A stretch of DNA of 64,000 nucleotides, taken from positions 1 to 64,000 of the forward strand of contig JAVJSW010000007.1 of NCBI GenBank assembly GCA_040219255.1. The letters run 5' to 3'. The notes under the pieces were generated by a model, which was not told the DNA's origin, did not search any database, and was given only the letters and a program-made list of their open reading frames with translations. Each line of letters starts with the position of its first letter. Within the stretch, counting starts at the first letter, position 1. The stretch comes from Sumerlaeia bacterium. Its GTDB lineage: Bacteria > Sumerlaeota > Sumerlaeia > SLMS01 > JAHLLQ01. Below are positions 5,222 through 37,532 of this stretch, piece by piece. Both the position numbers and the translations under genes were made by a program.

Positions 5222-5247
5222 CCGGTCCTCCCTTTCCCCCGTCCCAG

Positions 5248-8946: not shown

Positions 8947-9549
8947 ACGGGGGGGGGGGTCAAAGCTGAGGCAGCCGAAGCAGCTGCGCGTTGCATCCTT
9001 GCGGAGGCCTTTTGCAATACACTCCTCATCGGGAGAAACGGGTACAATTTTTCTTGTAATGGGCCTCGCTGGTTGTAATTCCCCGTCTGACGCCAGCCCG
9101 TAAAGCCATGCGTCTCAGAGGAAGAGGGGGACGCAGAGCTAACGCAAGTATTTGCATTGTTTTTCTGGACAAATTCCAAAAATGCGATACGCTGAGTAAT
9201 AGAATGGAAAGTCGCTGGGCTCATGCTTTGCGAGCGGGGGCGCCAACTTTGGTTGTACCTATTCCACAGGGGTGGCCGCAGCCAATGGACGGTCTATTTC
9301 GTTGTGGTTCTTGGAATTGGGGATTTGAGTAGGAATTGGTGCAGACCGTGCTCTAAGGACTTTTTGCGAAATCGCGCATCCCAACTCTCCCAGCCACCCG
9401 CCTTCGTCCTTCAAGCACCTGAAATCCCGCAGCTTGAAAGAAAAGCCGGTCCTCACACCGTTTGTTGGAGGGGAGATTGGGAAACGCGAATCGGAAATCC
9501 GGTGAGGCCCACTTCCTTGCCACACACCTCCTCAGGATTCTCCCCCCTC

Positions 9550-16431: not shown

Positions 16432-16983
16432 ATGCGCACTATGAATCCAAAGCACGAAATCCGCATCAGCAAGTTTTTCAGCCTCGTCCTGCGCCACGAT
16501 CCGGCCAAGGCGGGGCTGACGCTCGACGCCAACGGCTGGGCGCAGGTGGAGGCGCTGCTGGCCGGCTGCGGCCGCGCCGGGCTGGCCGTCACGCGCGAAG
16601 AGCTTGACCACGTCGTCGCCAACAACCCCAAGAAGCGCTTCGCCCTCTCGCCCGATGGCGCACGAATTCGCGCGAGCCAGGGCCACAGCGTCGCTGTCGA
16701 TCTGGCTCTGGCGGCGCAAACGCCGCCGGAAATTCTGTTCCACGGCACGGCGGACCGTAACCTCGCCAGCATCAAGGACCGGGGCCTCGTCCGGGGCGGG
16801 CGTCAACACGTGCATCTCTCGCTGGACGAAGAAACCGCATTCAAAGTCGGCCAGCGCCACGGCCGGCCCCTGATCCTGCGGGTGCGGGCGGCGGAGATGG
16901 CGGCGGCTGGGTTTGCGTTCCACTGTTCGGAGAACGGTGTGTGGCTGGTGGATGAGGTTCCCGCCGAGTATCTGGAGTACTGA
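16432..16983 (+). CDS. kptA: RNA 2'-phosphotransferase (Tpt1/KptA)
   Basis: SKFFSLVLRHDP, KKRF, IRASQGHS, LFHGT, RQHVHLS and SENGVWL motifs. Confidence 0.95.
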   Translation: MRTMNPKHEIRISKFFSLVLRHDPAKAGLTLDANGWAQVEALLAGCGRAGLAVTREELDHVVANNPKKRFALSPDGARIRASQGHSVAVDLALAAQTPPEILFHGTADRNLASIKDRGLVRGGRQHVHLSLDEETAFKVGQRHGRPLILRVRAAEMAAAGFAFHCSENGVWLVDEVPAEYLEY

Positions 16984-22226: not shown

Positions 22227-23507
22227 TTGACTTCACACGCATTGACCGCCCCGTTCAGCCATCGCCAGGACCCCGGACCGCTCCTCCGGCTGCGCCGCCA
22301 ATGGGCGCTCTTCGCCGCCTTGGGGGCGCTTTTTCTCTTCTCTGGAGCCCTTTTCCTCGCCCCGCGGTTCTGGCCAGCCACCCCCCAGGCTCCGTTGCTT
22401 TGGTTCCTGACCGCTGCGGCGGCCTTGATCTGGCAGATGTTTTACCTCTGGCATCACCTCGCGGAAAATCATCGCGAGGGCGAGGAAGCGATCCTGCCGG
22501 TCCTGGGCGCCGGGAACGCGCTCACGCTGTTCCGGGGTTTCGGCTTCGCCGCCGTCGCCGGTTTCGTGCTCTCGCCGAAACCCGAAGGCCTCTGGCTCTG
22601 GGTGCCGGCGGCGATCTATCTTTTGGCCGTGTGCGCCGACTACGCCGACGGCTGGATGGCCCGGAAAACAGACCACTGCACGGCGTTGGGCAAGAAACTC
22701 GACATGGAGCTGGACAGTCTCGGAATGGCGGTGGCCACGGCGTTGGCGGTGCAGTACGGCCAGTTGCCGCTGTGGTACCTGACGCTGGCGGCGGCGCCCT
22801 ATCTGTGGCGGGTGCTGGTCTGGATGCGCGAGCACCACAGCGGCCGGGCCGTCGAACTGCCGGAGAGCAACGCCCGGCGCCTTCTGGCGGGGACCCAGAT
22901 GGGATTCATCGCCACCGTGCTCTTTCCCCTGTTCCAGCCTCCGGTAACGACCGCCGCGGCGGTGGCGTTCGGATTGCCCTATGGGCTGATGTTCGTGCGC
23001 GACGGGTTCCTGATGTTTGGCAAGATAGCGCCCGATTCGCCGCTTCATCCCTCCGCGCCGAGGCCTCCCCGCTTCGTTCCGGCGGCGGGGTTTGTGGCGC
23101 GGTGGGCGACCGTTGTGCTGGGGGCTCTGACGCTCGAGGCGCTGTTCGGCCCCGCTCTGCGGGGAGACCTTAGCATGGGGATTTTCGCGGGCCGTGGCGT
23201 TGCGCTGGCGTGGCTCCTGGGGGGCGTGGGAGGGCTGGCGGTGCTGCTGATCGCTGCGGGCTGGCTCGAACGCACGTCGGCGTTCCTGCTGTTGCTGATC
23301 GTGTCGGCTTTTTCGCTGAGCCGAAATGTCGGCGCGGCGGAAATCGCCCTCATCGCGAGTGCCATCGCGGTGATGCACTTCGGCAGCGGACCCCTCTCCT
23401 TCGTCTCGCCGGAAGATCGATTTCTCAGTGGCCGCGCGGGTCTGGAAGAAGAAGAAGCTCGGCGGGCGGAGGAGGAATTTCTGCGCCACAGCGGCTTGAG
23501 GACATGA
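22227..23507 (+). CDS. CDP-alcohol phosphatidyltransferase-family protein with an extra C-terminal DoxX-like membrane region
   Basis: NALTLFRG and DYADGWMARKTDHCTALGKKLDMELD match D-x2-DG-x2-AR-x8-G-x3-D-x3-D; C-terminal TM bundle ending GSGPLS. Confidence 0.85.
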   Translation: MTSHALTAPFSHRQDPGPLLRLRRQWALFAALGALFLFSGALFLAPRFWPATPQAPLLWFLTAAAALIWQMFYLWHHLAENHREGEEAILPVLGAGNALTLFRGFGFAAVAGFVLSPKPEGLWLWVPAAIYLLAVCADYADGWMARKTDHCTALGKKLDMELDSLGMAVATALAVQYGQLPLWYLTLAAAPYLWRVLVWMREHHSGRAVELPESNARRLLAGTQMGFIATVLFPLFQPPVTTAAAVAFGLPYGLMFVRDGFLMFGKIAPDSPLHPSAPRPPRFVPAAGFVARWATVVLGALTLEALFGPALRGDLSMGIFAGRGVALAWLLGGVGGLAVLLIAAGWLERTSAFLLLLIVSAFSLSRNVGAAEIALIASAIAVMHFGSGPLSFVSPEDRFLSGRAGLEEEEARRAEEEFLRHSGLRT

Positions 23508-23608
23508 TGCGGAATGACTCTCGCTTTTTGCGGTGGAGGCTTCGGCACCGATTGCATTCCGGAGCGAGATTGACGTAGGACATCCGGCACACGCCCCACC
23601 CATGGGCT

Positions 23609-25102
23609 TTGCGCCGGGCCGATAGAAAGAATTTTGCTGTGTTGAAAACCACCACGCGCCCCGCCCTGAAAGTCCGAGAATTGACCCGCGCCCGCATCCC
23701 CACGACGGACGGCACGTTCCACCTCTGTTTCTTTGAAAACACCTGGGATGACAAAGAGCACATGGCCATCGTGGCCGGCGATGTGCAGGGCGGCGAGGAC
23801 GTGCTCTGCCGCATCCACAGCGAGTGCTTCACCGGCGACGTGCTGGGTTCGCTGAGGTGCGATTGCGGCGAGCAGTTGCAGCGCTCGATGGAGCTGATCG
23901 CCCGCGAAGGCCGCGGCGTGATCCTGTACCTGCGCCAGGAAGGCCGAGGCATCGGGCTCCTGGAGAAACTCAAAGCCTACAACCTGCAGGACGAAGGCCT
24001 CGACACCGTGGACGCCAATCTGGCGCTGGGCCACGGCGCCGACGAGCGCGATTACAGCATCGGCGCCCACATGCTGCGCGAACTCGGGGTGCGATCGATA
24101 CGGCTCCTGACCAACAATCCCGCCAAAATCGAAGGGCTGCGCGGCTATGGCATCCCTGTCACGCGCCGTGTGCCCCTGACGCCCCAGGTTGTGACGAGCG
24201 ACAATGCCCACTACCTGGCGACGAAGGTGCAGCGCATGCGCCATCTGTTGAACCTGGGTCCGGCACGCGGCCCCTTCGCGCCGCAGAACAGCGACGAGCA
24301 AAACCTGCTGGATCGCGCCCCGGCCTTCGCGCGCACCACCGGACGGCCGTTCGTGACGCTGTCTTACGCGCAAAGCATCGACGGCTGCATCGCCGCGCGG
24401 CGCGGCAAGCCGCTGGCCCTTTCCGGACCCGAGTCGTTGGAAATGACGCATCAGCTCCGGGCCGACCACGACGCCATTCTGATCGGCGTGGGAACGGTGA
24501 TCGCCGACGACCCCAGCCTGACGGTGCGCCACGTGGCGGGCGAAAACCCCCAGCCGATCATTCTCGACAGCCACCTGCGGACGCCCGCCGATTGCGGCTT
24601 GCTGACCGATCCGGCCCGCCAGCCCTGGATTTTCTGCACGCCGCAGGCCGACGCGGAGCGGCGTGAGGCCCTGGAATCAGCCGGCGCCCGTATCCTGGAA
24701 GTGCCCGCCGACGCCCACGGCCACGTCGATTTGGCGGCGGCGATGGATCGCCTCGGCGATGAAGGCATCACAAGCGTCATGGTCGAGGGCGGCGCCCAGG
24801 TCATCACCAGTTTCCTGACGGCGCGGCTGGTCGATCACGTCGTGCTGACGATCACGTCGATGCTGGTGGGCGGTGGCGTTCACGCGGTGGGTTCGCTCAG
24901 CGGCGGAAACGGGTCGAAAGGCTCGAGCTTTCCCCGTCTCGCCAACAAGCGGGTCCGCTACCTGGGCGAAGACCTGATCCTGCAAGGCGATCCGGTCTGG
25001 GAAGAAGACGGCCCCACGACAGCGGCGAAGAAGCCCGAGGAAGCGCCCCTGAATGGCCATCACAAAGGAACCAACGGCCACCGCCACGGCGAGACGGCAT
25101 GA
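23609..25102 (+). CDS. ribA: GTP cyclohydrolase II fused to a RibD C-terminal (pyrimidine reductase) domain
   Basis: RIHSECFTGD...RCDCGEQL, QEGRGIGL and LLTNNPAK; then YAQSIDG, DAILIGVGTVIADDPSLT and VMVEGG; no deaminase domain; exact start uncertain. Confidence 0.92.
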   Translation: MRRADRKNFAVLKTTTRPALKVRELTRARIPTTDGTFHLCFFENTWDDKEHMAIVAGDVQGGEDVLCRIHSECFTGDVLGSLRCDCGEQLQRSMELIAREGRGVILYLRQEGRGIGLLEKLKAYNLQDEGLDTVDANLALGHGADERDYSIGAHMLRELGVRSIRLLTNNPAKIEGLRGYGIPVTRRVPLTPQVVTSDNAHYLATKVQRMRHLLNLGPARGPFAPQNSDEQNLLDRAPAFARTTGRPFVTLSYAQSIDGCIAARRGKPLALSGPESLEMTHQLRADHDAILIGVGTVIADDPSLTVRHVAGENPQPIILDSHLRTPADCGLLTDPARQPWIFCTPQADAERREALESAGARILEVPADAHGHVDLAAAMDRLGDEGITSVMVEGGAQVITSFLTARLVDHVVLTITSMLVGGGVHAVGSLSGGNGSKGSSFPRLANKRVRYLGEDLILQGDPVWEEDGPTTAAKKPEEAPLNGHHKGTNGHRHGETA

Positions 25103-26148
25103 GCCGAAACGAGCCCCTGACACGCCAGGCCATCGAAATCGCGCAGCCGGGCCAAGTCCGGGTGGTGGTGGAAACCCTCGGCCCTCCCGCGCCGGGCCAG
25201 GTGCGGGTGCGCACCGTTTGCTCGGCCATTAGTGCCGGTACGGAACGCTTGTTTTTTCGGGGCGAAGTCCCCGACGGTATGGTGGTCGATTCGTCGATCG
25301 CGGCCCTCGGCTGCGGCGTCGCGTACCCGTTGCGGTATGGCTACGCCTGCGCGGGCATGATCGAGGCAGTGGGGGATCCGGCGCACGCATCGGCCGTCGG
25401 CAAGCCAGTGTTCGCTTTCCATCCCCACGCGAGCCATTTTCTGGCGGGCTGGGACGAACTGATCGGCCTCGATGGCTGGATCGGCGAAGATCTGGACGGC
25501 CCTGTGGCGGCGGACTTCGAGGGCGCGGCGCTCCTGCCGAACGTCGAGACGGCGGTGTCGCTGCTGCAAGACGGCGCCCCCATCGTGGGCGAGCGCGTCG
25601 CGGTGATTGGCCTCGGGATCGTGGGGATGTTGACGAGCCTTCAGGCGAAGCGCTTTCCCAGCGTCGAGTTCGCCGCCATCGAGCTGACCGAGTCCCGCCG
25701 CGATCTGGCGCGGGCGCTCCAGATTCCAGTGCTCGCGCCGGACGAAGCGGCCGCGAAGTGGGCTGCCAAATGCGATCTGGTGTTCGAGCTGTCCGGCAAC
25801 CCGGAGGCGCTCAACCTCGCTCTCGACCTCGTGGCCTTCAGCGGCCGCGTGGTGGTGGGCTCCTGGTACGGGCGCAAGCGGGCGGCGCTGGACTTGGGCG
25901 GGCGATTTCATCGGTCCCGCGCGCAAATCGTCAGCAGCCAGGTCAGCACGCTGGCGCCGCACCTGACGGGGCGTTTCGACAAGGCCCGCCGGATGGAGGC
26001 GGCGCTGCGGCTGCTGCGCGACGTCCCGGCGGACCGGCTGGTGACGCATCGCTTTCCCGCGGAGGACGCGGCGGAGGCCTTCCGCCTGCTGGACGAAACG
26101 CCCGGCGAGGCCCTCCAGGTCTTGCTGACCTACGACGACCCAACCTAA
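25099..26148 (+). CDS. Zinc-binding alcohol dehydrogenase-like (MDR) oxidoreductase
   Basis: SAISAGTE, YPLRYGY, GLGIVG Rossmann motif, SWYG and FHRSR..I.SSQV; ATGA overlap with ribA. Confidence 0.88.
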   Translation: MSRNEPLTRQAIEIAQPGQVRVVVETLGPPAPGQVRVRTVCSAISAGTERLFFRGEVPDGMVVDSSIAALGCGVAYPLRYGYACAGMIEAVGDPAHASAVGKPVFAFHPHASHFLAGWDELIGLDGWIGEDLDGPVAADFEGAALLPNVETAVSLLQDGAPIVGERVAVIGLGIVGMLTSLQAKRFPSVEFAAIELTESRRDLARALQIPVLAPDEAAAKWAAKCDLVFELSGNPEALNLALDLVAFSGRVVVGSWYGRKRAALDLGGRFHRSRAQIVSSQVSTLAPHLTGRFDKARRMEAALRLLRDVPADRLVTHRFPAEDAAEAFRLLDETPGEALQVLLTYDDPT

Positions 26149-26160
26149 GAGGAATCAAAC

Positions 26161-26589
26161 ATGTATACCGTTTGCGTCATCCGCGACTTCGTGGCCCAGC
26201 ATTACCTGATCGGCGGCGATTGGGGCGCGGAAAACGACTGGCATTCGCACAGCTACCGCGCCGAAGTGCAACTGATCGGCTCGGCCCTCGACCGCCACAA
26301 CTATCTGATGGACATCACAGACATTGAAGAGAACTTGGATGCGTTGGTGGCGAAGTACAAAGACAAGACGCTCAACGATCTGCCCGCTTTCGAGGGCCAG
26401 AACCCGAGCCTCGAACTCTTCGCCCGCCTCTTCGCCGAAGAACTGAGCGAACGCATTAGCGCGCCCTCGGTCGAGCGCCTCGTCGTGAAAATGTGGGAGA
26501 CACCGCAGATCTGGGCGTCCTACGATTTCCTCCGCCCGGCCGTCCACCGCCAAGCCGGCGCCACCCAGGCGGCGGCCAACATGGCCTGA
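26161..26589 (+). CDS. 6-pyruvoyl-tetrahydropterin synthase/QueD family (COG0720) protein with a non-canonical motif
   Basis: F.AQH.L, HSHSY, LND, NPSLE and WET motifs; lacks the QueD CxxxHGH cysteine. Confidence 0.88.
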   Translation: MYTVCVIRDFVAQHYLIGGDWGAENDWHSHSYRAEVQLIGSALDRHNYLMDITDIEENLDALVAKYKDKTLNDLPAFEGQNPSLELFARLFAEELSERISAPSVERLVVKMWETPQIWASYDFLRPAVHRQAGATQAAANMA

Positions 26590-26616
26590 TTTTCCCCGAC
26601 TTCGCCCGAGACTCTC

Positions 26617-27702
26617 ATGCGCATCGCTTTCGTCATCTACGGCTCGCTGGACCAGACTTCCGGCGGCTACCTGTACGACCGCGAGGTGGTGCGGCGGCTC
26701 CGCGGCCGGGGGCACATGGTGGAAGTCGTCAGCCTCCCCACGCCCGCCTCGACCATCGAGGCGATGCTTCACAACTTCGACCCCGCGACGCGCGAAAGGC
26801 TCGCCGGGGGCGGGTTCGACGTTATTGTCCAGGACGAGCTGTGCCACGGTTCGCTGGCGCTGCTGAACCGGAGGGTGCGGCGCCAGATCAAGGCGCCCAT
26901 CGTGGCGCTGGTTCATCACCTGAAGAGCAGCGAGACTCTGGCAGTGGGCCAACGCGCCGTCGTCCGGCGGGTGGAAAAGCGCTACCTTCAGACGGTGCAC
27001 GGCCTGATCGTCAACAGCGTCACCACGGGCAAAACGGTCGAGCGGGTGCTCGGCGCGGACCTGCCGAATGTCGTGGCCCGGCCTTCGGCGGCGCATCGCG
27101 TGGGTCAAGACATGAGCGAAGAGGACTTACGCAAGGCCAGCGACGGCCCCTTGCGTCTTCTGTTCGTGGGAAACCTGATCCCGCGAAAGAACCTGCCGAC
27201 GGTACTTGGGGCGTTGCGTGCTCTGAAGGATGTCGATTGGCGCCTGGACATCGTAGGCGGCGGAGACTTGGATCCGGTTCACGCGGAAGCCATGCGCCAG
27301 GTGGCCTCGCCCTTCGGCGACCGCGTGACCTTCCACGGACGGGTGGACGACGATGTGCTGGGCGGGCTCTTTCGCGAGGCGCACGTCTTGGTGAATCCTT
27401 CTCAATACGAAGGTTATGGGATCATTTACCTGGAGGCCATGGCCCACGGCGTCATCCCCGTCGCCAGCACTCCCGGCGCTCCCCACGAGTTCATCACCCA
27501 TCGCCGGGACGGTTTCCTCGTCTTTCCCCGCGACATCGACACGCTGGCGCTGATTCTGCGGGAACTGTCGCAAAACCCCGCCCATCGCCAGATCATGGCC
27601 ACCGCCGCCCGCCAAGCCTACCTGGCCCAGCCGAACTGGGATGACGCGGCGGAGGCCATCGAGGCGTTTTTGTTGAAATTGGCTTCTCAAAAAGCTTCCT
27701 AA
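26617..27702 (+). CDS. Glycosyltransferase family 4 (GT-B)
   Basis: SGGYLYD, LLFVGNLIPRKN and PSQYEGYGIIYLEAMAHG motifs. Confidence 0.9.
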   Translation: MRIAFVIYGSLDQTSGGYLYDREVVRRLRGRGHMVEVVSLPTPASTIEAMLHNFDPATRERLAGGGFDVIVQDELCHGSLALLNRRVRRQIKAPIVALVHHLKSSETLAVGQRAVVRRVEKRYLQTVHGLIVNSVTTGKTVERVLGADLPNVVARPSAAHRVGQDMSEEDLRKASDGPLRLLFVGNLIPRKNLPTVLGALRALKDVDWRLDIVGGGDLDPVHAEAMRQVASPFGDRVTFHGRVDDDVLGGLFREAHVLVNPSQYEGYGIIYLEAMAHGVIPVASTPGAPHEFITHRRDGFLVFPRDIDTLALILRELSQNPAHRQIMATAARQAYLAQPNWDDAAEAIEAFLLKLASQKAS

Positions 27703-27783
27703 AAATCGACCGGCCCGGCCCCCAAGGCTGTTTCCTCAGGAGTCGGGCCGTGCGATGTGCGGATGGACTTCCTTCGGCGGAGC

Positions 27784-30700
27784 TTACTCCGTAATCGTCA
27801 CCACAATGCCTTCGCGCCAGATCTTGGCTTCCGGCGTATAGTACAGGTACGTGCGGCTGGCCGGTCCGGTGGTGGTACCGGGGGTCGTGGCGGTGGCGCT
27901 GATGGGGATTTCGACGCTCGCATTGGGCGCCATGTCGCGCCAGTACAGCACCACGTCTCGCCCGCGCAGTTCATAGGCGGCGAAGCGGCCTTCGTCGCGC
28001 AACTCCTGCAGGCGCTCGATGCGCGGTTCCAGGCCGCCCGGCATGCCGACGATGGCCATCGTCATGGGCTGGCCTTTGTCCGCCGTGTTCGTCACGACAG
28101 CGGTGATCTCCGTGGTCTCGCCGACGGCGAGCGTCTTATCCGCGATTTCCGTCACGAGATCGATGGGGCAATCGCCCGAGTTCTCCGGCGTGTCGGCGTG
28201 GAAGCCAATCTCGATGGCGTAGGGCATCGCCGAACCACCGTCCATTTCCAGCGTGATCGTGTGAGCGCCGGGGCTGAGAAGGCCCGCGATGTCCGGCAGG
28301 AGCAGGGGTTTCTCGGCGCCGGCTTCGAAGCTCACTTCGCCGATCGGGTTGCCGTCGGCGATCAGGCGGATGGTGCCGGGGGCGTCGGGCTTGGCGCGGG
28401 CGGTGTCGTAGGCGATGATGGCCTTGAGGGCCAGCACCGTGCCCTGCGTCGAACCGAAGCTGCCGCCTTCGCACTGCTCGGCGATCCACTTCATGGCTTT
28501 CTCGACGTTGGCGGCATAGGCCGGGTCGTCGAGCCAGGCGAGCACGGCCAGCGAAGTCGTCTCCATGGTGCGAGAGATGCCGCCGCTCATGGTGATGGTG
28601 GCGTCGGCGCCGGTCACCGCGCCATCCTTGTCCTGCATCGCAGCGAGGCGCTGCATCAGGGGCTTGGCGTCGGCGGAGCGGCCGGCGTTCTGGAGCGAAT
28701 CCGCCACCAGCGCGACGATGTAGGGATCGCCGGTGGTGCGGGCGCGTTCGATGGCCTTCTGCAGTTCGGTCTCGAAATCGGCGGCGGGGCGGCCGGTGCC
28801 GGTCAGGCACCAGGTGATGTAGGCGTCGGTGTGTTCCTCGGGGGCGCGGCCAAAGCTATCCAGGGCCTTGGGATCGCGCTTGAATCCGCCCTGGCCGTCG
28901 CGACGGCTCAGCAGCCAATCGGCCGTGCGGTCGATCAACGCCGGGTCCACCGGGTAAACCTGCGCCATGTCCACGAATTCCATCAGGCCATAGGCCGTCA
29001 GAGCCTCGTGCGGCGGGGTGCTGCCAAACCACTCGAAACCGTCTTCCTTGGTCTCGAAACTGACGAGGCGCTTGTAGCCAGCGTCGAGCTTCTCGCGCGC
29101 TTCCTTCAGCAGGGCCGGGTCGGCGCCGGCATGGGATTCCAGGTACTGGCAAACCATCACCAGCGGATAGTTGGTCGAAGAGGTTTGCTCGAAGCAGCCG
29201 TAGGGATCGCGGATCAGGGCTTCCAGGGCGCTCGTCATGTTGGCCAGCGGGCTCGGATAGGCCTCGATCTTGGCCTTCACGGTGCCGTCGAGAACACTCG
29301 CCGGGATCGTGATCGTGTGGGTCGATTTGCCGTTCAGGAGTCCGCCCTCGGCGATGGACACGGGGAAGCCGCGCGACGCGATGGGCATCATCTGGGTCAC
29401 CGAGTCCTTGTTCTCGCCGTCGCTGATGGTGACGAGGACTTCGGCCTCGCCGGGTTTGGCGGGGATCGTCACGGGCAGGTAGAAGGTGGCGCGTTCTCCG
29501 GCGGCGACGCGCACCGATTCGGGGACGTCCTCGCCTAGGTCGGCACCGGTGACACTGGCCGTGATGGCGACATCGCGGGCGGTGTCTTGTTCGTTGGCGA
29601 TGGTCACGGGGATGCGGATGGTGTCGCCGGCGGTGACTTCCAGCGGCGGACGCACGCGCAGGCTCAGCGGCCGGCGGCTCTCGATTTCCGCGTCGGAGGC
29701 GCCAATGGCGCCCTTGTCGCCATAGCCATCGGCCATCACGCGGAAGGTGGTGATGGAATCGCTGAGGTCGAACTCGACGGTGGCTTCGCCGTTCGCGTCG
29801 GTGCGCAGACCGGCGTTCCAGTAAACGGTCTCGGCGAAATCGGTTCGGTCGTCGGGCAGGCGGTTCTCGCGGGTCTTGTGGGCGTAAACGCGCACCGCTA
29901 CCACGCCGCTGCCACTGGGGTAGGGCTGGGCGATGCGGGAGGCCGCGAGCTGGCGGCGGCGCTCGGGCCCGGCGAAGTCTTCATCGAACAGGGCCGCTTC
30001 CCGGGCGAGGGCGGGTTCAGCCATGTCCTGGGCGAAAGCCTCATCCTTCTTCTCGGCAATGGCCCGCGGTTCCTCGGGGGCCTCGGCAGCCAGTTCCATG
30101 AACGGATCCATGCCGTCGTCCATGCCGAGGGCCTCGTTCTCCTCTTGCACCATTCCCTCCGCCGCGAAAGGCGCGGCCTGGGCCGCCATGGGCTGAGGCG
30201 GAACGGCCCCGGCGGCTCCCACCGCCATCGCGTCCAGGCGCATTTCCATCCGGCCGGATTTTGGATAATACACCCGCTGCTCCCTCATCGCCAGCGCCCG
30301 CTTCGCCGCGTCGCCGTGGTTCGAGAGGAACTGATCGACGTTCACGTAAGCGAAGCGCCGCCAGCCCTGTGTGCCCAGCAACAGATCCAGCGCCTGCGGG
30401 GCCTCCTCCGAATCGGAGAGGTACACCTGCGCGTCGGCCAAGTCCTCGACTTCGTTTTCCAGAAACACCATCGCGGGCAGGCGAGGCGCCTTCTGGCGGT
30501 CCTCCACCATCTCCAGCGTCCCGTCGTCCGTCACCGTCAGGCCGACCGTCGCGGGCAGAGGTTTGCCGTTCTGATCCGTGGTGGTGACCTTCAGCGAAAC
30601 CTTCGACGCGGGGGTTTTCGCGGTGTTGTCCGGGGTGACATTGATCACGAGGCGGCGCTCCGGTTCGACGAAGACGAGGCGTTCGGCGAGCGGCAGCTCT

Positions 30701-32010
30701 GAGCCTTGGCCCCGGGTCATCACGGTGGCGCGCAGCACGCCGCTGACGCCGTCGGGCACCTGGAGACGCACCGTCTGCGGGCGGTCCGGGGTCAGCGTGA
30801 AGCCTTGCGCGGCGAGGCGTTTCTCGCGCTGCGACAACACGATTTCCACGCTCTGATGATGGGCGCTGGCGACGTGCAGTTCCACCGGCTCGGCCGGGCC
30901 GTACTTTGTCTGCGTCGCGCGCAGGACAACGCCCTCGCGCTGCGCCACCGGCAGCTTCGCCGTGGTCGTCACGGTCCAGGGCTCGATGACGGCAAGGACG
31001 TACTCTTCGCCCGCCTTCGGCGTGAACGTGAACGTTCCTCGGCCCTCGTGTTCACTCTCGGCGCGGTCGATGACGATGCCGGAGGCGGTTCGCAATTCCG
31101 CCACGATGTCGGCGGGACGGCCGTTGGGGGCGGTGGCTTCGAAGTACACGCGGTTCTCGACGCCGCCGACCAGGTCGCCGCCTTCTGGAAAGACCTGAAG
31201 CGTGACGTGTTGCAGCAAAATCGGGATGGTCTTCGACGCCGATTCCACCCCGCCGTCGTCCACGCTGAAGGTCAGCGTACCATCGCCAAAAGCGATCGTT
31301 TCCGGCAGGTCAAACCGCGCGGTCACGATGCCGTTGGCGGGGACTTCCATTTGCGAGCGATGCACCTCGGTGCCATCGACGCGGGCGATCACGGTGACGG
31401 GCGCTCCGGCGGGCACTTCGCCCTCCGTGCGTTTGATATCCATGGTCGCCAGGACGCTGTCGCCGGGGCCGTAGCCCTCGCGGGCGAACTCGATCTGCGT
31501 GCGGAAGCGCTTGGCCCGGTAGGCGCGGATGTTGAACTCGCGCTCGACCGGCGCGTAGCCGCCCTGGGGAAAGCTCAGCTTGATGGTATAATCGCCGCCG
31601 TCCTGCGCCTTGGGGATCTCCCATTTGAAGCCATAGGCGCCGTTTTCCAGGTTCGCGCTGCCGCCCGCCACGACCGCGTCCAGCGGCGAGCGAACTTCGA
31701 CGAAAGCCTGCTGTTGCCACGCATTGTTTGGGTTTGACGCGACCGGCGCGTGACTGAACGCGTCCAGCAGCACGCCGCGAATATAGACGGTTTCGCCCGG
31801 TTTGTAGATCGGCTTGTCCGTGGAAAGATGGGCCGTGGCGCGGTCTTCGCCGCCCAGCTTCTCGCTTAGCGAGTCGCCATTCTTCTGGGGTTTCTGGGGG
31901 TTATTCTGGGTCAACGCGGTACTCGCCAGCGAAAGGGTCAGGGCGCCGCCAAACGCCAGGGACGCCCACCGCCACGCCGCCCGGGGGCGGGGGGATTGCT
32001 TGCCTGCCAT
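27784..32010 (-). CDS. Alpha-2-macroglobulin/thioester-containing protein
   Basis: TDKPIYKPGE (MG domain), RTDFAETVYWN, LSDSITTFRV, thioester PYGCFEQ, GFEWFG...HEALTAY and FGSTQGT; SD GGAGGA before ATG 32010. Confidence 0.92.
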   Translation of the reverse strand: MAGKQSPRPRAAWRWASLAFGGALTLSLASTALTQNNPQKPQKNGDSLSEKLGGEDRATAHLSTDKPIYKPGETVYIRGVLLDAFSHAPVASNPNNAWQQQAFVEVRSPLDAVVAGGSANLENGAYGFKWEIPKAQDGGDYTIKLSFPQGGYAPVEREFNIRAYRAKRFRTQIEFAREGYGPGDSVLATMDIKRTEGEVPAGAPVTVIARVDGTEVHRSQMEVPANGIVTARFDLPETIAFGDGTLTFSVDDGGVESASKTIPILLQHVTLQVFPEGGDLVGGVENRVYFEATAPNGRPADIVAELRTASGIVIDRAESEHEGRGTFTFTPKAGEEYVLAVIEPWTVTTTAKLPVAQREGVVLRATQTKYGPAEPVELHVASAHHQSVEIVLSQREKRLAAQGFTLTPDRPQTVRLQVPDGVSGVLRATVMTRGQGSELPLAERLVFVEPERRLVINVTPDNTAKTPASKVSLKVTTTDQNGKPLPATVGLTVTDDGTLEMVEDRQKAPRLPAMVFLENEVEDLADAQVYLSDSEEAPQALDLLLGTQGWRRFAYVNVDQFLSNHGDAAKRALAMREQRVYYPKSGRMEMRLDAMAVGAAGAVPPQPMAAQAAPFAAEGMVQEENEALGMDDGMDPFMELAAEAPEEPRAIAEKKDEAFAQDMAEPALAREAALFDEDFAGPERRRQLAASRIAQPYPSGSGVVAVRVYAHKTRENRLPDDRTDFAETVYWNAGLRTDANGEATVEFDLSDSITTFRVMADGYGDKGAIGASDAEIESRRPLSLRVRPPLEVTAGDTIRIPVTIANEQDTARDVAITASVTGADLGEDVPESVRVAAGERATFYLPVTIPAKPGEAEVLVTISDGENKDSVTQMMPIASRGFPVSIAEGGLLNGKSTHTITIPASVLDGTVKAKIEAYPSPLANMTSALEALIRDPYGCFEQTSSTNYPLVMVCQYLESHAGADPALLKEAREKLDAGYKRLVSFETKEDGFEWFGSTPPHEALTAYGLMEFVDMAQVYPVDPALIDRTADWLLSRRDGQGGFKRDPKALDSFGRAPEEHTDAYITWCLTGTGRPAADFETELQKAIERARTTGDPYIVALVADSLQNAGRSADAKPLMQRLAAMQDKDGAVTGADATITMSGGISRTMETTSLAVLAWLDDPAYAANVEKAMKWIAEQCEGGSFGSTQGTVLALKAIIAYDTARAKPDAPGTIRLIADGNPIGEVSFEAGAEKPLLLPDIAGLLSPGAHTITLEMDGGSAMPYAIEIGFHADTPENSGDCPIDLVTEIADKTLAVGETTEITAVVTNTADKGQPMTMAIVGMPGGLEPRIERLQELRDEGRFAAYELRGRDVVLYWRDMAPNASVEIPISATATTPGTTTGPASRTYLYYTPEAKIWREGIVVTITE

Positions 32011-32259
32011 GATGATGTCCTCCGAGAGGGAACTCAATTGGTGATGTTGCGATCGCTTGCGGAGAGACAAGACAGGGGGAGCGGGGGTTTTGTTCCGGCG
32101 ATTTCGCCGCGCCACGGACGGCATGGGCGCTGGAAAGCCATGGAAGGGCAAATGGTCACGGATGAGCGGAGATGGAGTTCCGGATAAGCTGAATTCCCAC
32201 CCCCACGAACTCGAGAAACGGAGTCGTGCTAAGCCCCCTCGGGAGATTCCTCCGCTGTC

Positions 32260-35200
32260 CTAAGCCACGCCGCTGACGGTTTTTTGGGCGGTCTTGAGAG
32301 CTTCGACGATTTCCTCGGCTTTCGACCAGCGGTCGTTCTTGTCTTTGGCGAGGCACTTGGCGATGATTTCCCAGAGTTCGTCCGGGCAGCCCTCCGGGCG
32401 GTCCGGATCCCGGTGGATGTGTTGGTAGGCCAGATCGCCTTCGGTGAAGGGCGGTTTGCCGTTCACGAATTCGTAGAGCATGATGCCAAAGGCGTAGATG
32501 TCGGCGCGGTTGTCGACGGGGATGCCCTGCACCTGCTCGGGGCTCATGTAGAGCGGCGTGCCGATGACGGCGCCCATCATGGTGCCTTCGCCGGTCTGGT
32601 CCAGCATCTTGGCGATACCGAAGTCCGTGATCTTCACCTCGCCGCCGCTGGTCAGCATAATGTTGGCGGGCTTGATGTCGCGGTGGACGATTTGCAGGCG
32701 GTGGGCGTAGCCGAGCGCGTCGGCGATGGCGATGCCATAGCGGAAGGTCGTCTTCAGGTCGAGTTTGCCTTCCGTGCGGATCTTCTTCTTGATGTCGCTG
32801 CCGTCCACATACTCCATCGAGATGTACTTGCGGCCCATTTCTTCGCCGATGTCGTGGATGCGGACGATGTTCGGGTGGCTGAGTTTGCGGGCGTTGCGCG
32901 CTTCGATCTTGAATCGCCGGACCGCTTCCGGGTTGTTCGACATGGCGTCCGGCAGGATCTTGAGGGCCACGACTTCTTCGAGTTCCTTGTCCTTGGCGCG
33001 GTACACGATGCCCATGGCGCCGCGGCCCAGTTCGTCCTGCAATTCATAGCGCCGCTGGGCGCTCTCGCTCATCGCGTCCACCATACTCGTTTTGTCGTAG
33101 GCCGCCGTAAAGGCCATCGGGTTGCTGGTCGTGCCGGAAAGCATTTCAAAGCGCTGGCGCACGTCCTTATAGTCGATGTCGGCGGCGAAGAGTTGCCGGT
33201 ACACCGTCTTGGCGCCCACCAGGTCCTTCTTCGTTTCGTAGCGCTGCGCCAGGTCGTAGAGGATCTCCTTGGTCTCTTCGTCGACGACCAGCTTCTTGAA
33301 CTCTTGCAGGGCGAGATCGAGCATGCCCTTGGCCATGAAGCACTTGCCGAGCATCTTGGTCGATTCCGCTTCCCAGCGGTAATCCTGCGCCGTCTTCTGG
33401 AAGCAGCCAATGGCCTTGTCGTGATCCTGATTGAGGAAGTGAATCTTGCCGACGGCGAAGCGCACCTCCGAGTCTTCCTTCTCCTCCAGGATGCGCTCGT
33501 AGGTTTTCACCAGGGCGGCCACCACCTCGGCGCTGCTAGGCTGCAACTTGTAGGCTTCTTCCAGCACCTGCTTGCTGGCCTTCCACTGCTTGGCGTCGGC
33601 CAGCATGCGGCCCTTCATGGTCATGGCGGGGACGTTCTTCTGATCGCGCTGCAGGATTTGATCGAGGGCCCGCAGGACCGGATTTCCGAAGCTGTTCGGG
33701 CTGGCTTCGTAGACGGCGCCGAAGTGTTCGAGGGCTTCCCGGAAACGGCCCGATTCGACAAGCACTTCGCAGAGAAGCCAGCGCACCTGGGCCTCGCGCG
33801 GCTTCTGCGCCAGCACTTCCTGCAGATGCCGCACCAGGGTCTCCTCGCCCCCCTTGGGCAGGGCCTTCATGGCCGCCTTATAGCTCTCGACTGCCCGCTC
33901 CGCGTCGCCCTTCTCGACAAAGCAGCGCCCCAAAGCCATTTGGATGTCCGAATTGCCCGCTTCCGCCGTCGCGGCCCGGCGGTAGATATCTTCCGCCTCG
34001 GCGTCGGTGCGCGCTTTCTGGGCGAAGGCCGTCCCCAGCAGCACCAGCGCTTCCTTGTCGTTGGGATTGCGCGACAGGATCGCCGTGTATTCGTCGACAG
34101 CCTGATCGATTTTGTTGTCGTAGAGGTTGGCCATCGCGATCAGGCGGTTGAGTTCCTCGTCGCCGGGCGAAGTCTGCAACAGCCGCTTGGCCAGAATCGT
34201 CGCGTCCTGATAGCGATTCGCTTTCATGTACGCATTGGCCAGGCGTAGGCCGATCGCTTTGTCATCGGGCTGCATCTTCATGTGGGATTCGTAAACCGGA
34301 ATCGACTCGACGGTATCGCGGCTTTCCGAAGCGTGGATGCGGGCGAGACCGGCGACGAATTCCGGCTTCCCGGGCTCCATCCTCAGCGCGTCGCGAAAGA
34401 CTTTCTCGACGCGCGGTTCGTAAACGCCTTTGGCCACATACGAGGAGGCCAACTGAGCGTTGAGCATCGGGTCGCCCTGGCCGAGGCCATTGAGCGCTTC
34501 CACAGCGCGGACGGTCATGTCGTGGTTGCGGGTCAGCCGGGCCGTCTGCGCGAGCGCCCGCAGCGTCGGCACGTCCGAGGGATTTTCCTCGTAGCTGGCG
34601 TTGTAGACTTCGACCGCTTCCTGATCGTAGCGGCCGGCCTGGAAATAAGAGCCGGCCAGCATGCGGAGGATCTCGCGGTCGTTCCTGTTGAACTTGAGCG
34701 CGTGCCGGTACGCCGACAGCGCTTCCTCGTCGGTCCGTTCCTGGCGCAGGTAGCAATAGGCCAGCAGCCCGACCGCGCCCTCGTCTTCCGGCTGCACGCG
34801 CAGCGCGCTCTTCACGTTGTCGATGGCCTGCCCGATTTCACCCTTCTGCAGTTCGACGAGCGCGAGATGCCGATAGGCCGAGACATTCGAACTGTTGCCT
34901 TCGAGAACCGTCAGGCACAGCGACTCCACCTCTGGGTCGGTGCGCTTGGCGTCGATGCACGACTCGAGATAAGCCTCCAGGTAACGCTGATCGTCCTGGC
35001 GGGTCGGATAGACGTGTTTGTAAACCGGCAGGGCCTTGGCCGACGTGTTCCCCGTGGCGAGGTACACATCGCAGAGGGCGTTGTAGGCTTCGTCGCGTGT
35101 GTAGCCGCCGCGCAGCGCCGCGCGCAGACGCTTGCCGGCGCCCTGGAAATCGCCCTGCCCCTTGAGACACAGGCCGATCGCGTACTCCAGCACGGGCGGT

Positions 35201-37125
35201 TCGGAGAAATCGCTGCGGAGCGCCTTCTCGTAAATGTCCTGCGCTTTGCTGTCGATCTTGCCGGCTTGCATTAGACTGCGGGCGTAGGCGTGCAGGATCG
35301 CCTTGGCCTCCGGGTCTTTCTCGTACACCCGGCCGTACACGGGGACCGACTCCGCCGCGTGATAGCGCTGGCTCACATAGACCGTGGCGAGTGACTCGGC
35401 CACCTTGTCGTTCTTCGGCACTTTCGAATACAGCTTCTCATAGAGCCCCCGGGCCTCTTCCATGCGCCCCTGCGCCACCGCCTGCCGCGCCTTCGTCTCC
35501 AACTGCCGCAGCATCATCAGGCGAATGATCAGATAGGCCGTGAAGCCCAGAATCGCCAGCGCCAGCAGCGCGATGCCCAGGATGGTCCACAGGTGCTTGC
35601 GGATTTTCAGAGACCGTACCTGGGACTGGTACTCGGCGTTCAGCGGATCGAAACTTCGCAGCCATGCCGCCGCCGTGATCGCCGCGTCCCACTCGCCTTC
35701 CGCCTTCGCCAATTCCACTTCCTGCTGCTTGTTGGCCACTTCGTTGAAGAGCGCGTTGCGCCGCTGCTGCTCGAGATCGAAGAACCGGTAATCGAATCGC
35801 AGCGTGCGCTCGAAATTGCCGCCCCGCGTCATCCAGGGGCTGTAGGTCCGATTGGTCACCGCCGAACTCGAGAAATCCACAAAGTCCAGCCGCCCGTTGG
35901 CCGAAAGAGCCACAAGCCGGGCCATGTCGTCCCCCTCCCCCAGGTGTATCGCCGCCATCGTGTTCGCCGGGCTTTCCGCCAACTCCACCGACTCGAAATT
36001 CTCCGACGCGTAACCGCCGAACCACTTGTCGGTGGACATCAGGCAAAGCTGGCGCCCGATGCCGAAGGCTAGCCGCGGATAGCCGACGCTGCTGGGAATC
36101 AGGGTCAACTGGGTGCTGATGCCGCTGAACTCCCGCGAACTGGGATTCATCTGCTGGCTGGTATCGCGGGGGTTGATCGCCTTCAAGGTGTTCTTGGTGG
36201 CGACGAAGATGAGTTGGTCGTTGCTGTTGGGGAAGGTCGCCAGCACCGGATCGGAGACCGGATCGGCGCCCAGGCTCACTTCCCAGAGACGGTCGATCTT
36301 GCGCGTACCCGAATACGTCACCGCCCGCATCGTGCCGCCGTCGAAGACCAGCACGATGTCGTCGCGCCGGTCGCCGTTCAGGTCCATCAGCAACGGAATG
36401 CCCGTGATGCGTAGACTTTCCTTCACCGTCAGTTTTTCCGCTTCGCCCGTTTCCGTGTTCAGGATCACGATGTCGCCGTTGCCCGTGGGAAAGACCACCT
36501 CGCGGGCGTTGGCGTTGCGCACGCTGCCCACCGCCGCCGGGGCGCTGAAGGACGTGTTGGCTTGATAGGCGGGGAAGGCCTCGTTCACCGTCCATTCGCC
36601 GGGTTGAGGACTTTCCGCCTTCAGTCCGAAAATCGTTCCGCTCTGGTCGGCGACGATCAGCAGATCGGGCTCGCCGGGCTGGCCCGAGAGCACCGTCGTC
36701 GGCAGAAGAGCGAAGGGGTTGCTCGAAATGGGTTTGTCGACGAGGACTTCGAGCGTGCCGCCATCGAAGATGCGCACCCGCCCCTCGTTATCCCCCACCG
36801 CCAGGTCGAGTGAGTCGTCACCCAGGAAATTGCCGGCGATGGGCCCCGTCAGAGGTATGCCGACGCTGGCCTGGGCCAGGGCGTCGCCGTTCAAGCCGCT
36901 GAGAATGAGAACGTTGCCCTGCGTGTCGGTGGCGGCGATTTCCGGGGTGGAATCGTTAAAGAGATCCGCGGCCAGCAAGGTGTTGGGAGTGGGCTGGAGT
37001 TCGGTGGCCTTGGCGACCGACTTGTCGAGGAGTTCCTGCGCCCGGGCCGCGGAGGTCCCCGCCAGGGCCAAAGCGAGAGCCGCGGCCGCGGCCAGAGAGG
37101 CGCGTGAGTGTTTCGTTCGCAGCAT
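32260..37125 (-). CDS. Receptor-like Ser/Thr kinase: signal peptide, FG-GAP-like propeller, TM helix, TPR array, C-terminal Hanks kinase
   Basis: SAARA|QE; ADLFND..PEI, GNFLGDDSLDL and DLNGDRRDDIV repeats; TM LWTILGIALLALAILGFTAYLII; LGRGAMG, VALK, HRDIKPAN, DFG and GTPLYMSPEQ; start 37125 or 37158. Confidence 0.9.
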   Translation of the reverse strand: MLRTKHSRASLAAAAALALALAGTSAARAQELLDKSVAKATELQPTPNTLLAADLFNDSTPEIAATDTQGNVLILSGLNGDALAQASVGIPLTGPIAGNFLGDDSLDLAVGDNEGRVRIFDGGTLEVLVDKPISSNPFALLPTTVLSGQPGEPDLLIVADQSGTIFGLKAESPQPGEWTVNEAFPAYQANTSFSAPAAVGSVRNANAREVVFPTGNGDIVILNTETGEAEKLTVKESLRITGIPLLMDLNGDRRDDIVLVFDGGTMRAVTYSGTRKIDRLWEVSLGADPVSDPVLATFPNSNDQLIFVATKNTLKAINPRDTSQQMNPSSREFSGISTQLTLIPSSVGYPRLAFGIGRQLCLMSTDKWFGGYASENFESVELAESPANTMAAIHLGEGDDMARLVALSANGRLDFVDFSSSAVTNRTYSPWMTRGGNFERTLRFDYRFFDLEQQRRNALFNEVANKQQEVELAKAEGEWDAAITAAAWLRSFDPLNAEYQSQVRSLKIRKHLWTILGIALLALAILGFTAYLIIRLMMLRQLETKARQAVAQGRMEEARGLYEKLYSKVPKNDKVAESLATVYVSQRYHAAESVPVYGRVYEKDPEAKAILHAYARSLMQAGKIDSKAQDIYEKALRSDFSEPPVLEYAIGLCLKGQGDFQGAGKRLRAALRGGYTRDEAYNALCDVYLATGNTSAKALPVYKHVYPTRQDDQRYLEAYLESCIDAKRTDPEVESLCLTVLEGNSSNVSAYRHLALVELQKGEIGQAIDNVKSALRVQPEDEGAVGLLAYCYLRQERTDEEALSAYRHALKFNRNDREILRMLAGSYFQAGRYDQEAVEVYNASYEENPSDVPTLRALAQTARLTRNHDMTVRAVEALNGLGQGDPMLNAQLASSYVAKGVYEPRVEKVFRDALRMEPGKPEFVAGLARIHASESRDTVESIPVYESHMKMQPDDKAIGLRLANAYMKANRYQDATILAKRLLQTSPGDEELNRLIAMANLYDNKIDQAVDEYTAILSRNPNDKEALVLLGTAFAQKARTDAEAEDIYRRAATAEAGNSDIQMALGRCFVEKGDAERAVESYKAAMKALPKGGEETLVRHLQEVLAQKPREAQVRWLLCEVLVESGRFREALEHFGAVYEASPNSFGNPVLRALDQILQRDQKNVPAMTMKGRMLADAKQWKASKQVLEEAYKLQPSSAEVVAALVKTYERILEEKEDSEVRFAVGKIHFLNQDHDKAIGCFQKTAQDYRWEAESTKMLGKCFMAKGMLDLALQEFKKLVVDEETKEILYDLAQRYETKKDLVGAKTVYRQLFAADIDYKDVRQRFEMLSGTTSNPMAFTAAYDKTSMVDAMSESAQRRYELQDELGRGAMGIVYRAKDKELEEVVALKILPDAMSNNPEAVRRFKIEARNARKLSHPNIVRIHDIGEEMGRKYISMEYVDGSDIKKKIRTEGKLDLKTTFRYGIAIADALGYAHRLQIVHRDIKPANIMLTSGGEVKITDFGIAKMLDQTGEGTMMGAVIGTPLYMSPEQVQGIPVDNRADIYAFGIMLYEFVNGKPPFTEGDLAYQHIHRDPDRPEGCPDELWEIIAKCLAKDKNDRWSKAEEIVEALKTAQKTVSGVA

Positions 37126-37532
37126 CGGAAAAGCGGGCACGGTGGTCGTCTTCGGCATCGGATCGAATTCGTCTTGTACAGGGCGTTCTGGAGGTTCGTT
37201 CTTCGTTTCAGCCCACACGGAAGAAGGCAGGGCATCAACCGGGAATGGCTTCACTCGTCGAGATTTCCCGCGCGTAAAACAAGCCCGCGCCACTAAACGG
37301 CAGGCGGCGAAGGCGCGCAATCCGATTCCGGCCCCGGGCGAAGACTTTGGAACGAAACCTCACCGATGGGCCTGAGGGGACGGCGTAGCGAGGCCTTTAT
37401 CGTCATTGTCCTCCCAACTTTTCGAAAATGGTTGACTTATTGCGCCGTGCGAGCCCTTCATCATGCGCTTCTTTACAGAATCCTCGTAAAGAAGTCCCCA
37501 GAGTACACTCCCTCCCGATGGTTCCTTGCAAC

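Follow-up and report, generated by a model that had tools for sequence, protein, structure and literature searches.

What is made by a gene cluster in which a GTP cyclohydrolase II fused to a reductase stands beside a dehydrogenase, a PTPS homologue, a glycosyltransferase and a membrane phosphotransferase? The question is raised by five genes at positions 22227-27702 of the window, by which we mean the 64,000 nucleotides analyzed here (contig JAVJSW010000007.1, positions 1 to 64,000 of the forward strand, of the Sumerlaeia bacterium assembly GCA_040219255.1). A sequence-only reading of this DNA had taken the five genes for an orphan, dedicated pathway to a glycosylated pterin- or pyrimidine-type metabolite that may be attached to a lipid. 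We found that they represent a single copy of a conserved biosynthetic cluster that is both ancient and widespread. With slightly better than even confidence, we read it as an uncharacterized branch pathway that starts from GTP, passes through 2,5-diamino-6-ribitylamino-pyrimidinone phosphate (DARIPP), the dehydrogenase, the PTPS homologue and the glycosyltransferase, ends with joining to a lipid, and is separate from the riboflavin, queuosine and folate pathways.

The cluster in the window and in other genomes

All five genes lie on the forward strand. The first encodes a CDP-alcohol phosphotransferase (22227-23507, 426 residues) and the second a fusion of GTP cyclohydrolase II (GCH II) and a RibD_C reductase domain (23609-25102, 497 residues from a TTG start); they are followed by the genes for a medium-chain dehydrogenase/reductase (MDR; 25099-26148, 349 residues), the PTPS homologue, a member of COG0720 (26161-26589, 142 residues), and a GT4 glycosyltransferase (26617-27702, 361 residues). 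Between gene 1 and the TTG of the fusion gene lie 101 bases; the source's own call for this gene is 486 residues, 11 shorter, with a start possibly at 23642. Genes 2 and 3 overlap by ATGA (25099-25102), genes 3 and 4 are separated by 12 bases with GAGGA among them (26149-26160), and genes 4 and 5 by 27 bases (26590-26616). Co-orientation, overlap, gaps and intact motifs had all been claimed before, and all were found again when the sequence was reread and compared with Pfam. The window has about 65% G+C throughout, and its genuine frames can be distinguished by a G+C content at third codon positions (GC3) above 0.8; across the five cluster frames GC3 was 0.81-0.85.

The arrangement goes beyond chance, since other genomes repeatedly hold these genes side by side. 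A genome scan with an alignment of 32 PTPS homologues, mostly from Chloroflexota (A1), gave 530 relatives among the 600 matched stretches listed, and the best 80 loci were kept. All open reading frames (ORFs) of at least 90 residues from these loci and from 26 kb of the window were clustered into neighbour families and named by Pfam. The counts below refer to 45 loci, 44 fetched ones and that of the window, in which the PTPS gene is flanked by 6 kb or more on either side; they are lower bounds, as split or mis-started ORFs were missed. By tblastn with the five window proteins, the order GCH II-RibD_C, MDR, PTPS, GT4 was found again and again on one strand. GT4 was the tightest neighbour of the PTPS gene (43 of 45 loci), and a methyltransferase of about 300 residues dependent on S-adenosylmethionine (SAM) came directly after GT4 in 38. 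MDR was present in 35 loci, the GCH II/RibD_C fusion in 29, in all of them directly upstream of MDR-PTPS. The CDP-alcohol transferase was found in 24 loci, and 23 had a flippase-like protein of PF03706 ('LPG_synthase_TM'); all seven occurred together in 15.

The best 80 loci comprised 72 from Chloroflexota, three from Binatia (Binatota) and one each from Vicinamibacterales, Desulfobaccales, Cohnella silvisoli, an unclassified bacterium and a metagenome-assembled genome labelled Methanobacteriota. In the window the transferase gene immediately precedes the fusion gene, an arrangement that resembles the Binatia loci. In Cohnella silvisoli (L053, 6838-11152) there is a minimal form, RibD_C-MDR-PTPS-GCH II, in which GCH II and the reductase are encoded separately and GT4 is missing; beside it lie an IS605-type OrfB and, on the opposite strand, a stand-alone condensation-domain gene of the nonribosomal peptide synthetase type. 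That these four activities stand alone in Cohnella suggests that together they make a discrete intermediate.

The cluster also occurs in archaea. A protein search of a plasmid collection returned 17 records. Haloarchaeal megaplasmids, with identities of 43-53%, account for ten of these, and six of the haloarchaeal loci were examined by annotation, Pfam and tblastn. MDR, PTPS and the methyltransferase were present in all six and GT4 in four, a fifth having a different GT4 on the other strand; the CDP-alcohol transferase was found in three, DUF7475 in three and GCH III in one. GCH II and RibD_C were found in none of the six. The active-site pattern of the PTPS homologue was the same in the haloarchaeal proteins. 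Carriers of the cluster with complete genomes include the Binatia chromosome OZ243961.1, Ca. Leptofilum (NZ_OZ244997.1), Salisaeta longa, Longibacter salinarum, Cohnella silvisoli and Haloarcula strains. A check of the neighbourhood of the COG0720 gene, which the sequence-only reading had asked for, thus shows co-occurrence across phyla and in both prokaryotic domains. Its statement that similar COG0720 clusters exist in haloarchaea and actinobacteria is borne out by the six loci for the former; for the latter, the actinobacterial protein SCO6650 is the closest solved relative but belongs to a different motif class.

Two further features were noticed in the haloarchaeal loci. On plasmid pNG700 of Haloarcula marismortui the PTPS frame (L083, 9001-9365) is in two pieces and unannotated in both assemblies of the strain, which suggests a frameshifted gene within an otherwise intact cluster. 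Haloarchaeal clusters also add a GFO/IDH/MocA oxidoreductase (L081, 4643-6382; L083, 4919-6889), a partner that the bacterial loci did not show; the H. marismortui protein carries an aldo/keto reductase domain as a fusion, and its gene adjoins that of the CDP-alcohol transferase.

The entry enzymes, the PTPS homologue and their partners

By Pfam, the product of gene 2 consists of a GTP_cyclohydro2 domain (PF00925, E 1.8e-70, profile positions 5-165 of 165; residues 27-189, 23687-24175, forward strand) and a RibD_C domain (PF01872, E 5.7e-48, profile positions 1-197 of 197; residues 247-458, 24347-24982, forward strand). Both exceeded their NCBIfam cut-offs (RibA NF001591, 256.8 against 148; TIGR00505, 251.3 against 205.85; ribD_Cterm, 168.8 against 150.15). 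A deaminase domain is absent from the fusion, in which Pfam found PF00925 and PF01872 only, and from its 120 best homologues, all of which have the same two-domain architecture. All 120 keep the GCH II zinc cysteines (C-x10-C-x-C) and the Tyr of the A-Y-N-L-Q-D stretch (A-Y-[ND]-[LF]-Q-D), a residue that we take to distinguish GCH II from GCH III-like variants.

The reductase domain was classified by one diagnostic position. In the alignment it is Lys in bacterial RibD/RibG (7lrh and 2b3z), Asn in 6p8c and 5xv0, and Ser in the window; 6p8c was deposited as a 2,5-diamino-6-ribosylamino-pyrimidinone 5'-phosphate (DARPP) reductase. The 120 homologues have Ser in 68 cases, Thr in 52 and Lys in none. 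The Lys corresponds to Lys151 of Bacillus subtilis RibG, the proposed selector of the deaminated substrate. The comparison supports a deaminase-independent reductase of the Rib7/archaeal type, like the DARPP reductases, and agrees with the entry that the sequence-only reading had proposed, GCH II followed by a Rib7-type reductase. Because a deaminase is missing and Ser or Thr occupies the position of the bacterial Lys, the most likely product of the fusion is predicted to be DARIPP, which would then likely be the branch point of the pathway. The archaeal and fungal entry into riboflavin (GCH II/III with Rib7/ArfC) shares the reduction before deamination and the non-Lys diagnostic residue; it differs in that in the bacterial clusters the reductase is fused to GCH II and tied to MDR, PTPS and GT4, not to lumazine and riboflavin synthases.

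The distribution of the fusion fits this prediction. In the bacterial riboflavin route deamination comes first and DARIPP is not made; bacterial clusters must therefore bring their own GCH II and a deaminase-independent reductase. Archaea reduce first and deaminate afterwards (Graupner et al., 2002, as given in the reference list of PMC8305020), so that haloarchaea have DARIPP among their regular intermediates anyway. This taxonomic pattern, haloarchaeal clusters without GCH II and RibD_C and bacterial clusters with both, is the strongest new argument for DARIPP as the precursor. Six of the scanned loci (L013, L024, L031, L032, L038 and L057) have a divergent RibD_C-like gene about 0.9 kb downstream of GT4, after the GT4-methyltransferase pair; its product is 28-34% identical to the window reductase domain, and in this group the GCH II gene has no fused reductase or is absent.

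Could the fusion be an ordinary entry enzyme for riboflavin or F420, with neighbours that are unrelated or that supply ribitylaminopyrimidine for a deazaflavin? Its two intact domains, both above the RibA and ribD_Cterm cut-offs, would allow this, and a subfamily of COG0720, PTPS-IV, is said to be involved in F420 synthesis in a statement that cites unpublished work (Zallot et al., 2016, PMC5041015). The AGeNNT paper moreover reports PF00925 and PF01872 in the PTPS-IV neighbourhood (Kandlinger et al., 2017). The surroundings speak otherwise. Pfam searches of 54 further window ORFs showed no RibB, lumazine synthase, riboflavin synthase or CMP/dCMP-type deaminase, no QueC, QueE, QueF or FolE, no other riboflavin, queuosine or folate gene, and none of the F420 genes CofC, CofD, CofE, CofG and CofH. 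Rfam at gathering thresholds gave no match in the 64 kb, and hence there is no FMN riboswitch in the window; the absences listed by the sequence-only reading (ribB, ribE, ribH, deaminase, queC/E/F, folE and riboswitch) thus hold. Furthermore, the fusion lies directly upstream of MDR-PTPS in 29 of the 45 loci, the PTPS-IV signature is missing from the subfamily of the PTPS homologue, and neither riboflavin nor F420 synthesis has a use for GT4 or the membrane proteins. We consider this explanation improbable.

The product of gene 4 belongs to PF01242 (E 1.5e-25). A search among clusters at 90% identity gave 3079 homologues at E ≤ 1e-3; apart from the protein itself, the best of them are 60-69% identical, and those with names are mostly from Chloroflexota. 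Its stretch AQHYLIGGDWGAENDWHSHSY, residues 12-32 of the 142, includes E-N-D-W-H-S-H. Six residues, His14, Glu24, His28, His30, Asp68 and Glu113, are invariant in the 32 sequences of A1. In rat PTPS and PH0634 the zinc histidines occupy the positions of these three histidines, and Glu113 aligns with the ring-anchoring Glu; from the alignment and from earlier structural work we take the four residues for zinc ligands and anchor. Searched against 1.84 billion representatives, the A1 profile found 2516 proteins at E ≤ 1e-3, of which 571 remained at 1e-10 and 49 at 1e-30. Motifs were counted in 110 near-full-length sequences, namely 107 representatives (43 of the 150 matches listed were dropped for length), the window protein and two haloarchaeal proteins. 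The His/Glu/His/His pattern was present in 92 of them, a Cys three to five residues ahead of H-x-H, the QueD/PTPS-II position, in one, and FGPAQ in none; the window protein has W-G-A-E-N at the aligned place.

These counts were set against the published subfamilies. PTPS-I to PTPS-VI are listed for COG0720, with an unclear function for PTPS-V; PTPS-III has the motif E-x2-H-G-H, and some of its archaeal members may take a monophosphate substrate (Zallot et al., 2016, PMC5041015). The PTPS-IV signature is FGPAQ (PMC5445326). The motif found here, E-x3-H-[SAT]-H, differs from C-x3-HGH, C-x5-HGH, E-x2-HGH and FGPAQ. Four labels were accordingly rejected. QueD/PTPS-I would need the catalytic Cys of C-x3-H-G-H, and the QueD model TIGR03367 gave 44.2 bits against a cut-off of 89.25; PTPS-II has C-x5-H-G-H, which is not present; PTPS-III has its Glu at -3 where here it is at -4, before a pair that is H-S-H; and PTPS-IV has FGPAQ, which is missing, although the GCH II/RibD_C neighbourhood attributed to that subfamily is found in 29 of the 45 loci. 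Judged by its motif, the PTPS homologue represents a zinc-type subfamily that is distinct from PTPS-I to PTPS-IV.

An AlphaFold2 model (pLDDT 86) confirmed the T-fold, and Foldseek placed SCO6650 of Streptomyces coelicolor (3d7j) first (TM 0.78/0.82), followed by Escherichia coli QueD (TM 0.70) and animal PTPS. SCO6650, a PTPS-IV protein, was also the best PDB match of the A1 profile (8.5e-16), everything else being at 2e-4 or worse; matches in the ESM Atlas gave only family-level names, and the Atlas cluster nearest to the PTPS homologue, made up mostly of Gemmatimonadota, is no more than a lead. Both SCO6650 and the PTPS homologue are without the catalytic Cys, and GCH II and RibD_C are shared by our cluster and the PTPS-IV neighbourhoods published in the AGeNNT paper. 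They differ in that SCO6650 has H-G-A where the subfamily has H-S-H, and thus lacks one zinc histidine; the subfamily has, in addition, an invariant Glu at -4 from the first of these two histidines. The literature searched contains no biochemical function for PTPS-IV. PTPS-III of folate and methanopterin synthesis is likewise a zinc T-fold with Glu in place of Cys as the likely base; here the Glu stands one residue further upstream (E-x3-H-S-H, by alignment with PH0634), and no folate genes lie beside the cluster.

That the PTPS homologue is simply QueD, a 6-carboxytetrahydropterin synthase, and that the cluster feeds 7-deazaguanine synthesis, is what RefSeq and JGI imply by naming its homologues so, and the fold match to QueD is in line with that name. 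The near-complete absence of the Cys motif and the low score of the QueD model contradict it, and queC, queE and folE were found neither among the 54 other window ORFs nor among the 30 most widespread neighbour families of the 81 loci. We regard this as very improbable. The sequence-only reading was right to set the protein apart from QueD, and it can be added that it is neither PTPS-II nor PTPS-III.

For the MDR protein, Pfam gave only ADH_zinc_N at 29.2 bits, under the cut-off of 31.8, and no ADH_N match; the best NCBIfam model was bchC, at 71.2 bits far below its cut-off. Its PDB matches by sequence were L-arabinitol 4-dehydrogenase (1.6e-8) and sorbitol dehydrogenase. The AlphaFold2 model (pLDDT 90) together with Foldseek confirmed the MDR fold, with threonine, butanediol, idonate, xylitol, arabinitol and sorbitol dehydrogenases as top matches (TM 0.72-0.77). 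G-x-G-x2-G and 43 invariant columns are kept across 41 orthologues. By sequence and model the protein is assigned to the polyol/secondary-alcohol branch of the superfamily and is BchC-like; a predicted dehydrogenase of secondary alcohols or polyols would therefore suit a ribityl chain.

The product of gene 5 is a glycosyltransferase of the GT-B fold class (Glycos_transf_1, PF00534, 2e-28; also PF13692) that exceeds no NCBIfam cut-off. Its PDB matches were Tll1590, PimB', MshA, PimA and the tetrahydrobiopterin glucosyltransferase 5zer. The best of them act on inositol phosphate or phosphatidylinositol, a likeness that is generic for GT4.

The possible membrane link and the proposed pathway

The product of gene 1 has a CDP-OH_P_transf domain (PF01066, E 3.2e-16) with a catalytic part at residues 97-246. 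Its motif, D-x2-D-G-x2-A-R-x8-G-x3-D-x3-D, is intact and conserved across 27 orthologues, among which the hydrophobic C-terminal extension is poorly conserved. Nine matches to NCBIfam equivalogs (PgsA, PssA, PIP synthase, ClsA and archaeal forms) were all far under cut-off, the best being pgsA with 28.2 bits against 109.1, and one Chloroflexota and one haloarchaeal orthologue likewise reached no equivalog cut-off. Within 10 kb of the PTPS gene the transferase gene was present in 24 of the 45 loci of the bacterial scan and in three of the six haloarchaeal loci; its placement varies from upstream on the same strand to downstream and convergent with the flippase-like gene and DUF7475. Three membrane-protein families, the CDP-alcohol transferase, PF03706 and DUF7475, thus recur by the cluster in varying arrangements in Bacteria and Archaea, and a lipid-bound end product is therefore plausible.

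DUF7475 is a small hydrophobic membrane protein, present in 25 of the 81 loci and three of the six haloarchaeal ones (L003, 7187-7519; L081, 10225-10611; L083, 4486-4869; L086, about 4735-5004), where it usually adjoins the CDP-alcohol transferase and the flippase-like gene. The idea that the C-terminal extension of the window transferase is a fused DUF7475 was rejected on a search of the window.

The branch pathway that we favour may proceed as follows. GCH II, judging by its intact full-length domain, would open GTP to 2,5-diamino-6-ribosylamino-4(3H)-pyrimidinone 5'-phosphate, and the fused RibD_C would reduce this product directly to DARIPP with no prior deamination. The polyol-type MDR could then oxidize a secondary hydroxyl on the ribityl chain. 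The PTPS homologue would hold the 2-amino-4-oxopyrimidine ring by Glu113 and the chain by the zinc bound to His14, His28 and His30, and Glu24 might act as the base in place of the usual Cys while the chain is rearranged, cleaved or dephosphorylated. If the MDR oxidized C2', ring closure could give a pterin like dihydroneopterin phosphate. GT4 would add a sugar, and the SAM methyltransferase, absent from the window, would act next in most other genomes. Finally, as its place in the neighbourhood suggests, the CDP-alcohol phosphotransferase would make a phosphodiester that links a phospholipid with the product or with its acceptor.

Several observations weigh against this scheme. For the steps of MDR and the PTPS homologue, both order and chemistry are guesswork. 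The version with oxidation at C2' is not compelling, because GTP cyclohydrolase I (GCH I) is a shorter route to a pterin of the neopterin type; a chemistry peculiar to the open-chain compound is at least as likely. GCH II/RibD_C is missing from 16 of the 45 loci, and many of the locus counts are not independent, since 72 of the 80 loci and most of the query alignment are from Chloroflexota. A search across the 64-kb window showed no methyltransferase of this kind, no flippase-like gene and no DUF7475. Moreover, the CDP-alcohol transferase may have a separate function, as it is missing within 10 kb in 21 of the 45 loci and in three of the six haloarchaeal ones.

These points lead to the question of whether the product is soluble. 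It could be a glycosylated and elsewhere methylated pterin, like the biopterin glucosides of cyanobacteria and Chlorobium and cyanopterin, with MDR in the role of a sepiapterin reductase or a ring-closing oxidase and the CDP-alcohol transferase unrelated. PTPS, GT4 and the methyltransferase do form the tightest trio (with GT4 in 43 and the methyltransferase in 38 of the 45 loci, and in four and six of the six haloarchaeal loci), pteridine glycosyltransferases are documented enzymes (PMC5683033, PMC4133829), and the ring-anchoring Glu113 is kept. GT4 also matches the tetrahydrobiopterin glucosyltransferase (5zer/5ze7, 1.3e-7), but the match is limited to residues 183-319, the C-terminal half that binds the nucleotide sugar, and ranks under PimB', MshA and PimA. 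For such a product GCH II and a ribosyl reductase would be a detour, as GCH I gives a pterin directly, and the three recurring membrane-protein families would be left without a part. We hold a soluble pterin to be rather unlikely. The known pathway of cyanobacteria and Chlorobium resembles the cluster in combining an enzyme of the PTPS family with a reductase or dehydrogenase and with a GT-B glycosyltransferase, its glucosyltransferase BGluT being the weak match of GT4 just mentioned; it differs in its entry by GCH I instead of GCH II, in a short-chain instead of a medium-chain dehydrogenase, in the active site of its PTPS and in having no membrane proteins attached.

Within the branch pathway from DARIPP, we tentatively propose, as a possibility that is less likely than not, that the product is a new class of membrane phospholipid, built by the CDP-alcohol phosphotransferase, whose head group is a glycosylated, elsewhere methylated, derivative of DARIPP, either a pterin or a new ring, and that the flippase-like partner moves this lipid to the outer leaflet. 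A known counterpart is the start of phosphatidylinositol mannoside synthesis (PgsA1 and PimA), where the gene for a CDP-alcohol phosphotransferase acting on a polyol phosphate likewise stands beside a GT4 and to whose enzymes PimA and PimB', as to MshA, our GT4 is similar. In contrast to that system, the cluster has no genes for an inositol-phosphate synthase or an acyltransferase, the PIP synthase model gave only 24.6 bits against 170, and the polyol would come from GTP. The interpretation given in the sequence-only reading is supported in part: co-occurrence, entry enzymes and a PTPS other than QueD argue for a pathway of its own, and the membrane proteins fit a link to lipid.

Surroundings of the cluster, earlier records and significance

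The five-gene unit is flanked by a divergent M14 peptidase gene on one side and a convergent alpha-2-macroglobulin gene on the other. Between the end of the cluster and the latter, a consensus scan placed a terminator-like hairpin on the reverse strand (27708-27720); the scan of the region gave 8 sites where 5.1 ± 2.6 were expected, which is near chance and makes the hairpin weak evidence. A promoter scan found none. The alpha-2-macroglobulin is of the bacterial type (27784-32151, reverse strand, 1455 residues) and is followed by a protein of 1686 residues (32260-37320, reverse strand) that has numerous TPR repeats and ends in a Ser/Thr kinase domain.

Elsewhere in the window, two tandem paralogues on the forward strand (7675-8856 and 9223-10632) each combine an Amidase_3 domain (N-acetylmuramoyl-L-alanine amidase) with a C-terminal Golvesin_C. 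An ORF at 4858-6231 (forward) shows only the C-terminal HrpB_C (E 3e-48, residues 310-442), the helicase core not being detected; it overlaps an ORF at 5200-6327 (reverse) of similar GC3 and may be a truncated or mis-framed hrpB. A prepilin peptidase (49923-51701, forward; A24_N_bact and Peptidase_A24) carries an extra C-terminal MshEN domain, and a homologue of the Tpt1/KptA RNA 2'-phosphotransferase, here in a bacterial context, lies at 16432-16983 (forward).

Has this type of cluster been seen before? No product is assigned to it in the literature searched, a search that did not extend to the paper defining the PTPS subfamilies (Phillips et al., 2012), and to this extent the word orphan stands. 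The neighbour families themselves had already been printed beside PTPS-IV nodes: in the flattened text of Fig. S4 of Kandlinger et al. (2017), nodes 55 and 62 are accompanied by PF00534-PF13439, PF00925, PF00534, PF05165, PF00107, PF03706, PF01066, PF13649, PF01872 and PF02636. This is the set found here; the edges are unreadable in that form of the figure, and the text accompanying it leaves these families undiscussed. Because of this record, the window holds a new member and not a new kind: it is a reduced member, lacking the methyltransferase and the flippase-like gene and coming from a poorly sampled lineage, of a cluster type that had been glimpsed before. The best homologues are only 59-67% identical.

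COG0720 is a classic example of a family in which paralogues are misannotated, and its subfamilies IV and V lack an assigned function. The cluster gives a testable entry to this problem, with DARIPP as a defined candidate precursor; the cultured Firmicute Cohnella silvisoli offers a core of four genes, and further copies exist on megaplasmids of cultured haloarchaea. The family is large, with its 3079 clusters and more than 500 species genomes. Since annotations everywhere give it the names of QueD or of riboflavin enzymes, the metabolism reconstructed for Chloroflexota and other lineages is in error here.

If the phospholipid reading is true, the lipid would be common to Chloroflexota, Binatia, halophilic bacteria of the Bacteroidota type and haloarchaea, and MDR and the Glu-type PTPS would act on an open-chain ribitylaminopyrimidine by a chemistry without known precedent in their families. 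A true link to the membrane would add a head group derived from a nucleotide to the known polar lipids of Bacteria and Archaea.

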